Origin: Chrysomallon squamiferum | Lineage: Eukaryota > Animalia > Mollusca | Length of the DNA stretch: 64,000 bases | Reading direction: 5' to 3' | Assembly (NCBI GenBank): GCA_012295275.1 | Contig: CM022668.1 | Coordinates: 5,022,001 to 5,086,000, forward strand | Shown: positions 1,209-59,029 of the stretch, piece by piece | How the letters are laid out: every line of letters starts with the position of its first letter | Numbering within the stretch: position 1 is the stretch's first letter | Made by a program: the position numbers and the translations under genes | Notes under the pieces: generated by a model | The model's input: the letters and a program-made list of their open reading frames with translations, nothing else | Told to the model about the DNA's origin: nothing | Database searches by the model: none

Positions 1209-1342
1209 TTACGTAAGGTTACCATAGCAGCACACGTCAGATTCACCCGCCCTGCCATAGTCAACAGTTACAGAGCCAGAATTACGCACACAGCTTTGTA
1301 CTAACAGACACTCGGAAGATTCTCCTTGGTAATCCACACAAA
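1209..1342 (-). CDS. Orphan terminal exon encoding a Cys-rich domain: xCVDYQGESSECLLVQSCVRNSGSVTVDYGRAGESDVCCYGNLT*
   Basis: Acceptor tttttctttcag, phase 1, open to TAA at 1209-1211. Spacing C-x9-C-x5-C-x12-[R]-x6-CC matches the exon at 4295-4437, and the downstream UTR motif GTTTCCTTT.ACGTCCG is shared. Candidate upstream micro-exons are 1571-1579 (AG/GTAAGC intact) and 1758-1769 (acceptor AA, broken). Confidence 0.7.
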
Positions 1343-2357
1343 CTGAAAGAAAAATATGTGAGGAAAAAAATCATTGAAAGAGAAAGTTACTTTCTCCCTG
1401 ATTCTATCTATATATACTTCTTTTTTTATCTCTCTGTCTGAATCATTTTACTTAAAAGCGGAATAATGTGTAAGGGAGAAATATCTATGGATGATATAAA
1501 ACTTCGGCCAGATGAATAAAAATTAAATGAAATTATAAAAATAATAGTAAAGAGGAAAAATAACGCTTACGTAAACATGCTTTTAGCGAAAAAAAATTTA
1601 TCTGTGTCTATGTACGTATGTATATTTGTATGTATGAATGTACGTATGTATGTATCTTTGATAAGAGTATGTGTTTATGTGCATGCACTGATATAAATAT
1701 CTGTTTCATGTATTTTTCATGCAGAAACTAAATTAACACAAGATATTTGTGTCTTACCTGGAATAGGAATTTCAAAGAGAAACAACAACAAAAATATAAA
1801 TAAATAAATAATAAAAATTATTATTTTAATACATCAGATAAAGAAAATTAAAATATGTTTAATGTAATGATATATCTATGTATGTAGATTTATTTACATG
1901 CACAAAGTATTTTAAAACTATAAACTGTACAAAATATTTCTGAACCTATTTAAGATTATTTAGTAGTAATCCTTTCTCAAAACGTACGAATGAAAACAAA
2001 TCATCTAACATATCACGAAAAACGTTCTTAAACAAAACATATCATTTGAAAACATTTTAAAATATTTCTGCATCTTTTACTCATTTCATTCGCATATCCT
2101 TCCAGAGACATATGAGTCAGAAAATCGCGATGCCAGTAAAATGTCGCTTTGACTACAAGCTATGATGGGACGTGCAGTTATTGGACTTTTCACGGACAAA
2201 ATAATTTTACACATGTCAAAGATCCGGCAGTTGTAGTTTATATCGAAAATGGTTTGTTATCTCCCTTTTTATCTATGGTAATGTCTGTCCTCATCGAAAG
2301 AGTCCTCACAATACATGTTTCCAAATTAGCAAATTGACATAGAAGATTTCACGTCAT

Positions 2358-2440
2358 CTAGCGGAACAGAAGTTGGGCGGACGTTAAAGGAAACACCTGT
2401 ATTAGACTGCCAGAATTACCCAAACATTGTGAAGACGGCT
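2358..2440 (-). pseudogene. Internally deleted copy of the Cys-domain terminal exon (xPSSQCLGNSGS...)
   Basis: Acceptor tttttatgtag. It retains SS.CL, NSGS and the family 3'UTR motif CAGGTGTTTCCTTT.ACGTCCG seen at ~1165-1195. Confidence 0.5.
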
Positions 2441-3095
2441 CTACATAAAAATAGAAAAGCCATTCAAACAGTTACTCCTTACCCCCCTCTCTCTCTCTCT
2501 CTCTCTCTCTCTCTCTCTCTCTCTCTCTCTCTCTCTCTCTCTCTCTCTCTCTCTCTTCTTTTTTCTCACATTTTTCTTTTCTATCGCTGCTTATCTCAGG
2601 TTTCTCTGTTACAGATTCTCTCTGCTGCTTTTTACTTCTTACTTTCCTTCTGTTTATTGCTCAAATAAACTACATTAAAAAAAACGTGTACCCCGATCGC
2701 CTCCGAGAAAAGGACATAGACAGTGACAGATAAACAGACAGATATACATACAAACAGAACAAGCGCTATCACAACAACAATAAACAGACCAGTACCAGTA
2801 ACAATAAGAATAAAATAGTAAGAAATAAAATATTAAATTTAAAACAAAATCAAATAAACAAAGAAGTCAATAAATAAGACGTCCAAATGTTTGAAGCGTA
2901 TCGCTTTACGATCGATTTTCTTCTGTTATATCCAGCACAAGACAATCAAGAGAAAAACTGAGAACAATTAATAATTATTGTCTTATCAGATTTCAATGAA
3001 ATTAGAAAATCACACATGCAGCTACCGAGCAGAACAGAAAATGCAATTAACAAATAAAATAAAAATTAATTTCTAATACAACTATTTTCCTTCAG

Positions 3096-55820: not shown

Positions 55821-56598
55821 AGTTCGAGTCTCGTCAGCGGCATCTGACGGGATTTCCCGAACTGTTATTACACTTTGTCCTCTTTCTATCTCTGTTTCAC
55901 ACATTTTTCTATTAGTCTGGGATTCTTTCATACCGATTCCTCATCTTTTTTCTCACATTTTCTTTTTTATCTAACCTCTGTTAGGGTTTCTCTGTTACAG
56001 ATTCTCTCTGCTGGTTTTTCTTTTTCCCTCGTACTTTCCTTGCGTTTATTGGTGAAATAAACTACCTTAAGAAAACGTGTACCCCGATCGCCTGCGATAC
56101 AAAGACATAGACACTGACAGATGAGACAGCTGTACAAACAGAAAAACAGAACAAGAACTATCACAACAACGATAAACAGACCACTACCAATAACCATAAG
56201 AATAAATAAAATAAAATAATAATAAATAACATATTAAAATTAAAGTAAAATTAAATAAACAAATAAATCAATAAATGAGAAGTTGAAATGTTTCGAAGAT
56301 CGATTTTCTTCAGTTGTTTACTCTGTTATATCCCGCAAAGACCATCAAAACTAAAACCGGTGGGTAGCTGAATATAAACTGAGAACAATTAATAGTTGTA
56401 GTCTGTAACAGATTTCAATGAAATTAGAAAATGGCACATGCTGCTCTCGAGCAAATGAAAACAGAACAGAACATTTAATTAAACTTTTATTTCACTCTGT
56501 ACACGTAGTCGAAAGAAACAAGCAATTGTAAATCTCACATTTCCAGTATACACACAGTTCGACAAAATCGTCACTACAGGAAATAGATTTAGCTGAAA

Positions 56599-56685
56599 AT
56601 GAAATATTTTCTGATTATTTGTTTGTTGATTCTAATATGTCTGATTATAGCAGAGTCATACCTTGAAAGCTGTAGTCAAAACTAA
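56599..56685 (+). pseudogene. Truncated exon-1 copy MKYFLIICLLILICLIIAESYLESCSQN*
   Basis: Duplicate of 14205-14291 with the same lost donor. Confidence 0.7.
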
Positions 56686-57351
56686 GTTATTTAGTTTTTA
56701 TCTATTAAAATAATAATAACAATAATAATAATAATAATAATAATAATAATAATAATAATAATAATAATAATAATAATGAAGATAAAAGATAAAGTGTTTT
56801 TTTAACACAAATATAAATTTATGAGAAGAAAGACAATGAAGAGGAAAGAGATGGTATTTCTTTAACACAAGTATAAATTTAATACTAGGACCATATATAA
56901 TAATAATACAAAAAATAATAATAATAATAACAACAACAACAACAACAACAATAAATAAAAAAGAATTACAATGAAGTAAATCAAATAATATTAAATAGAA
57001 ATTATAATAAAACTAAAGCAAAAACTAAATTAATAAATAAATTGTATGAAAATTAGAAGAGTTGTTTTCTACTGACGATTTTTTCGCTGCTGTTACTTAC
57101 TGTTTATCTCGTTCGAGGTCATAGATAGAAAAACTGTGGGTGCCTGAAAGTAAATGAAAGACGTTTACAATAACAAACTGGTATTAAATTGAATGATGAC
57201 AGGTATAAATCTCCAGGGAGTAGAAAAACAAAACTTAATTAAATATTTTTAAAATCTACGTTGATAAATAAAATAGTTTATAAGTCTCACATTTCCAGTG
57301 TTCACTGAGCTCGTCAAAGTCCTGACTTACAAGAAAGAGAAAAGACAGAAA

Positions 57352-59029
57352 ATGAAATCTGTTCTGATTATTTGCGTGTTGGTTCTAACATGTCTGAGTG
57401 TAGCAGAGTCACACCTTGAACACTGGGGGTGGGGACATGAGGGATCGGCTGAAAGCAATTGTCAAAAGTAAATAATTTATTTTTTATCTATTAAAATAAT
57501 AATAATAATAATAATAAATAAACAAACAAACAAACAAACAAATAAATAAATAAGTAAATAAATAAACAAATAAATAAATAAATAAATAAGCAAATAAACA
57601 AACAAACAAACAAATAAATAAGTAAATAAATAAACAAATAAATAAATAAGCAAATAAACAAACAAACAAACAAACAAATAAATAAAAACAAACTACAATA
57701 ACAGAGACACACATTGACTTTGCTGGTATCTAATTTCGGTTTAACATAAGTGGAGAAAATCTCAAACATTAGTTCAATCTGAGCAGTAGTTTTGAAGATA
57801 TTGCTTTTTGCAGCCAGTGGGTCAACTTTGATTTAAATTCATGGCACTGGAAAGCTAATTGCATAAGAATTTCAAATCTGTTACCATTTCCTTGATAAGT
57901 GATTCATAAGTCAAATTTACTATGCAAGATTCTAGCTGCAACATAGAAAAAGAATGTCAGGGGTAATAGTTTTAGCTTAGAAGTAAAATACAGTTGAAGT
58001 GAACACACCTGACAATAAAATGCATTTACAAGATATTAATGTACTCAAATGCACGAGGTTCCAGTAGGCAGTTTTGATGCTTTATTGTATCATGGCCACA
58101 GCCTGGAAATCATTTTATTAGAAAAATGTGAAATAATGCAAATCAAACTGAGTAAACAGACATTGTATAAAAGCAGCCACATTTGTAGAAATCTATCATC
58201 ATAAAAAATGAGACAGCGGTATCTGGCTGCAACATTTCTCAGAAGGAACTTTCATTATTTAAAATATTCGTTCATTTAGAGAGTTTAAATGTAATCACTT
58301 ACTGTCTTAGTGTTTCTCCTTTCCACGTAGACCAAATTTATGAAACTAAGTTCTTTAAATGTTTGTTGGAATCTCAAACTGATTTCTGAAGTTGGTGTCG
58401 AAATTCTTCACATTTTCAGGGGACAGTGAAAACTTTTATTTTTGGAATTCCTTTCAGTGAATTAGTGGACTTTATTCATCATTCAGTTAGTCCACAACTG
58501 CTTACATTAACAAAATTCAGCAAAATGAGGTTGTTTAAACAACAACTTTAAAAGCTTTTCTAACAGAAAACAATGTCAGGTGTACGAGACTTTTTGTTTC
58601 CTGGAAAAGCAATAACTGAGACGTGTAACATAAAATATTTTTACGTTACGAAGCTGTTTTCATGTTTCAGAACTTAAAAAATGCGAGTGAAAATTGACTG
58701 TCTGAAAAAACTGTTACACGACTGCGAAGCACTACGTAAGTAAAACATACAACTCTCTCTCTCTCTCTCTCTCTCTCTCTCTCTCTCTCTCTCTCTCTCT
58801 CTCTCTCTCTCTCTCTCTCTCTCTCTCTCTCTCTCTCTCTCTCTCTCTCTCTCTCTCTCTCTCTCTCTCTCCAGAGATTCTGTCTATCAGTTTATCTATC
58901 TACATACAAATATACATTAAGAACATTTCTCTTTTGTATACCTGATCTTTTGAATTCCAGATCTTTTGAACTAATATTATTTGCATTTCTTTTTTTATTA
59001 TTTATTTCTCTCTGTAGCTGCACCAGCAA
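57352..59029 (+). pseudogene. Gene C' pseudogene: exon 1 57352-57467, exon 2 58671-58735 with in-frame TAA, micro-exon 59018-59029; 3' exons deleted
   Basis: GAA->TAA in the second full codon of exon 2. The downstream exons fall within the ~6-kb deletion. Confidence 0.8.

Follow-up and report, generated by a model that had tools for sequence, protein, structure and literature searches.

Can a mollusc genome build secreted proteins from exons of only three to five codons, and if so, what would keep such exons in frame? The question is raised by a 64,000-nucleotide (nt) stretch of the Chrysomallon squamiferum genome (assembly GCA_012295275.1, contig CM022668.1, positions 5,022,001 to 5,086,000 of the forward strand), referred to here as the window. 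A sequence-only reading of this DNA had described a hidden cluster of genes with strings of tiny exons and had likened it to the micro-exon genes (MEGs) of Schistosoma. Our analysis favors a tandem cluster of related genes, of which some are complete and many are broken; they probably encode secreted mucus-type glycoproteins with a stalk assembled from micro-exons. This is very likely a real protein-coding family, and the modeled splicing of the micro-exons is likely correct. A role in mucus or surface defense, suggested by composition, is evenly balanced, and regular skipping of micro-exons is rather doubtful. The window has 29% guanine plus cytosine, about 28% tandem repeat, and one 200-N gap. 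Comparison of the window with itself shows that block 4201-17926 is duplicated at 44657-60248 and block 24125-28530 at 60312-63342, and that four tandem units of ~3.1 kb occupy 30.9-43.0 kb.

Micro-exons, reading frame, and conservation

Micro-exons were sought with a blind scan that applied a generic splice-site rule, without training on the window, to candidates of 9-18 nt. The scan returned 47 candidates, 41 of which are multiples of 3. Local Markov shuffles (30 for order 2 and 30 for order 4) contained on average 11.3 and 15.6 candidates of 9-18 nt; for candidates that are multiples of 3, the mean was 3.9 (maximum 7) at order 2 and 6.8 (maximum 11) at order 4. After curation the set holds 48 micro-exons (34 of 12 nt, nine of 15 nt, and five of 9 nt), every one a multiple of 3 and phase 1-1, as the sequence-only reading had stated. 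Its tally of more than 45 such exons also stands, but its size range of 9-18 nt does not: the curated set contains no micro-exon of 18 nt, and the one that had been proposed most probably represents the end of an overlooked 102-nt exon with six Cys. The claim that nearly all boundaries are AG/GT was accurate, since all 48 acceptors are AG and 47 of 48 donors are GT, with a single GG donor (18898-18912); 39 of the 48 micro-exons have the consensus donor GTAAGT, GTAAGC, or GTAAGA. The TATG/GATA microsatellites ascribed to the introns were likewise found, with at least three tandem TATG/GATA/TATC/GGAT units in 37 of the 45 introns of the three minus-strand chains.

These micro-exons are not independent of one another. 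They comprise 29 distinct sequences, and their flanks fall into 20, 12, or 8 classes at 85, 68, or 62% identity, a pattern that suggests descent of all 48 from 8-20 ancestral cassettes. Searching with the upstream flanks alone recovered 60 sites, including 19 seeds. Four of these are low-complexity mismatches and three are off-register matches on real exons; the rest all carry an AG...GT exon except for 8541, where the exon has been deleted, and 18898, with its GG donor. Non-repeat indels outside exons in the paralogue alignments are multiples of 3 in 15 of 82 cases.

The modules fit together by phase. Whether 104, 116, or 131 nt long, the signal-peptide exons end in phase 2. A 65-nt exon shifts this to phase 1, and every later module (micro-exon, tiny end exon, or Cys exon) continues the frame. 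The in-frame chain of modules that had been proposed therefore holds from the signal-peptide exon to the end, but the models that have an intact signal-peptide exon, a 65-nt exon, and an end exon (A1, A2, and C1 in Table 1) account for only 20-21 of the 48. Translation of the micro-exons in phase 1 yields 59-74% Thr, Ser, and Pro (T+S+P) with no stop, in agreement with the Thr-rich tail described earlier; the other frames yield 0-21% and contain stops in chain B. Among 17 distinct 12-nt exons, Thr is encoded by the middle codon in 16 and by the last codon in 13, with all four Thr codons in use. Whichever modules were skipped, no stop codon would arise, since none of the 439 ordered exon pairs yields one. 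Ahead of the stalk, exon 1 has a hydrophobic core (KD11 of ~3.4 in A1, A2, C1, and C2), and the head segment contains a His-rich tag, an odd number of Cys residues, and a heptad segment, the heptad exon having I-L-L-L-L-C at its a/d positions.

The earlier description was incomplete in that it overlooked many broken copies and a repeated 102-nt exon. Each 3.1-kb unit of chain B contains this exon, which is phase 1-1 and encodes six Cys residues spaced C-x3-C-x5-C-x12-C-x6-CC. Three of the four copies are identical and open, while the introns differ by 3-7%. A 19-nt micro-exon or recursive splice site was considered in the B units and rejected, as the segment is the 3′ end of the 102-nt exon. 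With its 21 micro-exons, 20 of them left of the gap, chain B has a predicted product in which Cys modules are separated by ~20-residue T/P/K/A linkers, which would amount to a beads-on-a-stalk plan. Partial gene P0 ends in an exon with a related and intact spacing, C-x9-C-x5-C-x12-C-x6-CC. The six-Cys end exon of the sequence-only reading is thus borne out in P0, but only one of the four stand-alone Cys exons keeps all six residues.

Chain B also offers conservation evidence for coding function. In a comparison of two of its units, differences occur at 2 of 214 positions in exons plus splice sites, versus 97 of 1907 in non-repeat introns (p = 0.003), and other unit pairs gave p = 0.002 and 0.008; this signal lies mostly in the Cys exon and the splice sites. 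A run search with exon 1 of A1 listed four runs, with one match of unrecorded kind and none to RNA. An additional comparison was made with run X1, which behaves as DNA in that its contigs run through introns, over 10630-11890 and 32215-33240. In these intervals, runs X2-X4 did not cover the exons and showed no credible splice junction, a result that speaks neither for nor against expression. An X1 contig matches the exon at 32973..33074 without any difference in 102 positions, versus 20 substitutions and one gap in 275 flanking positions (p = 0.003), a comparison that is only partly independent because 9 of the 18 compared X1 changes also occur in another unit of the window.

Members of the cluster

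Table 1. Genes, gene fragments, and exons of the micro-exon cluster, in positions of the window
Feature	Position	Strand	Details
Orphan terminal Cys exon	1209..1342	-	Five Cys
P0, partial gene	3096..4437	+	15-nt micro-exons 3096-3110, 3208-3222; six-Cys terminal exon from 4295
A1, complete gene	6115..11354	-	8 exons, 88 residues; exon 1 11354-11224 (signal peptide, His-rich tag, phase 2); 65-nt exon 9349-9285; 12-nt micro-exons 8908-8897, 8347-8336, 7953-7942, 7574-7563, 6791-6780; end exon 6125-6115
Cassette of A1	8530..8541	-	Micro-exon deleted, acceptor fused to donor
Extra exon-1 copy	14205..14290	+	Truncated, lacks donor
C1, probable gene	14971..19570	+	Head-to-head with A1; exon 1 14971-15086; 65-nt exon 16286-16350; micro-exons 16686-16697, 18640-18654, 18898-18912 (GG donor); Cys exon from 19475 (five Cys, 8-codon deletion, stop lost, 3′ end uncertain)
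E, divergent gene, broken in this assembly	20847..24060	-	Exon 1 24060-23957 (104 nt, phase 2); half heptad exon 22915-22883 without AG acceptor; 15-nt micro-exon 22485-22471; end exon 20857-20847
Two isolated 12-nt micro-exons	27635..28158	-	28158-28147, 27646-27635; among decayed cassettes
Chain B	29779..42759	-	Four tandem units of ~3.1 kb; micro-exons of 9/12/15 nt and a single six-Cys exon per unit; end exon 29783-29779
Six-Cys exon of B	32973..33074	-	102 nt, intact
Six-Cys exon copy of B	36096..36195	-	2 nt shorter, frameshift
Six-Cys exon of B	39160..39261	-	102 nt, intact; same sequence as 42256..42357
Six-Cys exon of B	42256..42357	-	102 nt, phase 1-1, intact
Assembly gap	43014..43213	.	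200 N; 5′ side of chain B
Inverted copy of C-type region	43346..43738	-	12-nt micro-exon 43357-43346; heptad exon broken past first half
Orphan terminal Cys exon	44752..44894	+	Four Cys
A2, complete gene	46457..54296	-	16 exons, 120 residues; exon 1 54296-54166; 65-nt exon 52433-52369; thirteen 12-nt micro-exons starting at 52124, 51788, 51129, 50743, 50388, 49821, 49443, 49148, 48601, 47968, 47562, 47288, 46731; end exon 46467-46457
Extra exon-1 copy	56599..56685	+	Truncated, lacks donor
C2, pseudogene	57352..59029	+	Exon 1 57352-57467; 65-nt exon 58671-58735 with in-frame stop; micro-exon 59018-59029

The two complete genes share a 131-nt exon 1 and an end exon with an 11-nt coding part, and they differ in micro-exon number, with 5 in A1 versus 13 in A2. 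A TATAAA lies 72 nt upstream of A1 and AATAAA/ATTAAA signals begin 103 nt past its stop; A2 also has TATAAA upstream and poly(A) signals downstream. Pseudogene C2 is head-to-head with A2, and no exons were found downstream of its micro-exon. For P0, no 5′ exons were found within the window. Whether the inverted C-type region copy links to chain B across the assembly gap is uncertain. An alternative acceptor would turn one of the isolated micro-exons into an 18-mer (28147-28164).

A number of additional features surround these members. All five signal-peptide exons (donors at 11224, 15086, 23957, 54166, and 57467) use a GTAAAT donor. The promoters of the head-to-head pairs (11224-15086 and 54166-57467) are inverted copies of one another, with one additional truncated exon-1 copy between the genes of each pair. 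A 68-bp minisatellite of 7.7 copies (13472-13988) sits between the head-to-head promoters and is unexpanded in the duplicated block. Each tiny end exon is followed by a 22-nt repeat (5787-6037, 20667-20778, 29580-29712, and 46188-46379), which provides several minus-strand AATAAA signals, so tandem alternative polyadenylation is possible. Gene E contains an internally deleted Tigger/pogo-like element (20890-21640) with a CENP-B N-terminal remnant that has two stops; the element shares ~70% identity with Tigger-derived proteins of bat, hagfish, and turtle. Minus-strand exon-like segments at 25821-25829 (9 nt) and 26225-26252 (28 nt) lie in a duplicated block and have minus-strand copies at 61909-61917 and 62286-62313; these four candidates join no model and were excluded from the 48. 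A GC-richer interspersed element that by eye resembles a short interspersed nuclear element (26420-26630 and 62490-62700) had no match in Rfam, and its tail motif recurs near 635, 25150, 61320, and 63527.

Known designs and homology searches

Sequence searches identified no relative of this family. Nine family exon queries had no match in Pfam, and hence none to a SEA, VWD, or TFF domain, and family queries had no match among PDB sequences. Exon 1 and the P0 Cys exon found no relative in a protein collection that holds longer proteins only, which makes this a weak test. A phmmer search of 1.84 billion proteins gave two matches, both to JGI repeat proteins that share a W-G motif alone, and these were rejected as chance. 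An exact pattern scan of metagenome contigs gave 0 matches. Four family motifs appear in 0 papers in a literature text search, and the same number, together with the word "micro-exon", are absent from the searched supplement files of PMC7142155. Judged by title and the start of the abstract, no mollusc family of micro-exon secreted proteins is present among the literature matches listed, although supplement files and deposited gene sets for the species may hold models of these genes. The family is apparently undescribed. Its design is a known one; the exons are unusually short, and a six-Cys module is repeated.

The fold of the six-Cys module was approached in the same way. AlphaFold models are of low confidence (predicted local distance difference test scores of 59 and 54) and too poor to compare, and neither Foldseek nor VIA found a match for the first model. 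For the P0 module the ESM Atlas held no usable match; its first match for the six-Cys module is a beta-defensin cluster with a score of 0.76, which is a lead only. P0 and the three intact B exons do resemble beta-defensins, whose fold has 1-5, 2-4, and 3-6 disulfides, in having six Cys residues that end in CC, but the module has no Pfam or PDB match, and a predicted beta-defensin-like fold draws on this spacing and the atlas score only. The module is also clip-domain-like.

Comparison with described systems places the cluster among several designs. MEGs encode a signal peptide and a coding region composed mostly of symmetric micro-exons, with alternative splicing (PMC4350168, PMC4671649, PMC10526429); according to PMC4350168, they occur in platyhelminths only. 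The cluster resembles them in its symmetric micro-exon strings, clustered copies, and small TSP-rich predicted secreted products. A1, A2, C1, and C2 encode a predicted signal peptide in a long first exon, the exon that in MEGs carries most of the signal peptide, and all 48 micro-exons are symmetric and, at 9, 12, or 15 nt, well within the MEG limit of <36 nt. MEGs have most of their coding region in micro-exons, whereas micro-exons account for 22% of A1 and 43% of A2. Additionally, the micro-exons here derive from recent tandem copying of a small number of cassettes, and the organism is a mollusc. Single-exon queries found no relative. Because the mostly micro-exon feature is missing and no homology was detected, we describe the cluster as working like a MEG without classing it as one. 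The suggestion that it arose independently of MEGs is likely right. The proposal of a MEG-like system is supported in that there is a gene family, its modules preserve the frame, and its design is like that of MEGs, but that design is not particular to MEGs.

SmPoMuc is the closest system in genomic design (PMC2576457). It too is a clustered multigene family with pseudogenes, in which a small exon and its flanking intron are repeated in tandem among microsatellites and encode S/T/P repeats, and its copy number is altered by unequal crossing-over. A 27-nt repeat exon (exon 2) in ~1-kb units, a 15-exon gene, and a 234-residue C-terminal region characterize SmPoMuc, for which splicing and glycosylation have been shown (PMC2576457). 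The cluster has none of these dimensions; instead, its multi-exon units combine 9-15-nt exons with a six-Cys exon, downstream of a head that is His-rich and contains heptads, and splicing is predicted. No sequence similarity between the two was found. Chicken Muc13 likewise uses one exon per unit of its Pro/Thr/Ser stalk, and its authors propose control of length through recombination and splicing (PMC1552070). Here a stalk of this kind also has one small exon per unit, but Muc13 is a membrane mucin with a SEA domain and 20-residue units, whereas the cluster has 3-5-codon exons and small predicted secreted proteins. The Xenopus integumentary mucin FIM-C.1, a skin mucin with several small Cys-rich modules that is polymorphic by alternative splicing (PMC7177656), resembles the beads-on-a-stalk plan of chain B; its modules are TFF domains, which the six-Cys module does not match. 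Finally, aphid bicycle genes share the many small exons of one phase and encode lineage-specific secreted proteins that similarity searches miss (bioRxiv 10.1101/2021.09.24.461719), but their internal exons are phase 2, they have CYC motifs, and no Thr/Pro stalk is described in the portion of the text available.

Competing explanations and significance

How might such proteins work? The predicted signal peptide would direct secretion and the His-rich tag could bind metal, while three heptads and an unpaired Cys would be expected to form a disulfide-linked coiled-coil oligomer. A Thr/Pro/Lys stalk from 9-15-nt micro-exons is predicted to be O-glycosylated, and in B-, C-, and P0-type members defensin-like six-Cys modules would act as binding heads. 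The most likely role would be in surface mucus, to which the proteins would contribute multivalent components able to bind microbes or other mucus glycans through their Cys modules. At the DNA level, and at that level only, stalk length changes by tandem duplication and deletion of exon-plus-intron cassettes, and since all cassettes are phase 1-1 the frame survives each event. Phase symmetry may be kept mainly for this reason, with occasional skipping (weak donors, a frameshifted Cys exon) adding isoforms.

Several results weigh against a functional mucus family. Considered by themselves, micro-exons are not significantly more conserved than introns (2/60 sites differ, p = 0.77). Exon 1 and the 65-nt exon diverge at the same rate as introns between A1 and A2 (11/196 versus 164/2628) and between C1 and C2 (18/181 versus 229/2912); the ratio of nonsynonymous to synonymous change in the A and C pairs is ~0.4-0.7, calculated from few sites; and of nine exon-1 variants seen in X1 contigs, eight are nonsynonymous. 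Damage affects C2 and E, as well as three Cys exons and one Cys exon of B. The window contains no signal exon for chain B, whose 5′ side consists of a broken heptad exon and the 200-N gap. Additionally, the mucus role, the oligomer, the glycosylation, and the defensin-like fold are all read from composition and spacing and nothing else.

The rival that survives best, although on the unlikely side, is a MEG-like system in which regular skipping of micro-exons and Cys modules gives each gene a ladder of isoforms and creates diversity at the host-microbe surface. The uniform phase of the internal modules and the absence of stops among the 439 exon pairs both suit it, as do three weak GTAATT donors in A2 and the GG donor in C1. 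SmPoMuc and FIM-C.1 diversify by splicing (PMC2576457, PMC7177656), and the reading frame of chain B is open only with its frameshifted Cys exon skipped, so that expression of B with this exon would require skipping. However, the symmetry is explained equally well by duplication of cassettes from a symmetric ancestor (8-20 classes), donors are mostly consensus, and, because the T/P/K modules are almost the same as one another, their loss by skipping would alter length and not specificity.

Quite unlikely is a second rival, that the genes encode structural or adhesive matrix proteins of shell, scale, egg capsule, or operculum, with a His/Cys cross-linking head, coiled-coil assembly, and a glycosylated spacer. 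The composition of the head is as expected for such proteins. The summed depth of X1 contigs, ~430-4400 over 11232-11790 versus 49 on the flanks (with at most 10 contigs at one variant site), hints at many paralogues, as in bulk secretions, and is not a copy number. On the other hand, six tested motifs are absent from four supplement files of the scaly-foot shell/sclerite proteome (PMC11871041), files whose sequence content is uncertain, and fast amino-acid change suits defense better. A mostly decaying cluster, in which micro-exons persist in pseudogene copies through recent duplication with their flanks, is improbable: the broken copies, the equal exon and intron divergence of the A and C pairs, and the nonsynonymous X1 variants would fit, but A1 and A2 are fully open with every splice site intact, B exons are conserved relative to introns (p = 0.002-0.008), and Thr has been retained through synonymous change.

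Under the favored reading, a mucus-type family with a micro-exon stalk, a separate family with 3-5-codon exons in a mollusc would mean that the MEG-type design recurs outside flatworms and that such genes escape annotation based on open reading frames and homology. The cluster captures a process under way: cassettes are gained by duplication, lost by deletion, and combined with a six-Cys module by recombination. Since adjacent paralogues have 5 and 13 micro-exons, they offer a direct test of whether symmetry is kept for splicing diversity or for length change in DNA. A bolder possibility, which we consider unlikely, is that a mollusc independently evolved MEG-like diversification based on tens of genes that annotation has missed. 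Their 3-5-codon exons and 102-nt defensin-like exons would be shuffled through duplication in the DNA and skipped during mRNA splicing, and each animal would secrete oligomeric glycoproteins that bind metal, in a ladder of forms that differ in how many microbe-binding heads they carry. If true, these proteins would be a candidate tool by which this vent snail manages its surface bacteria.

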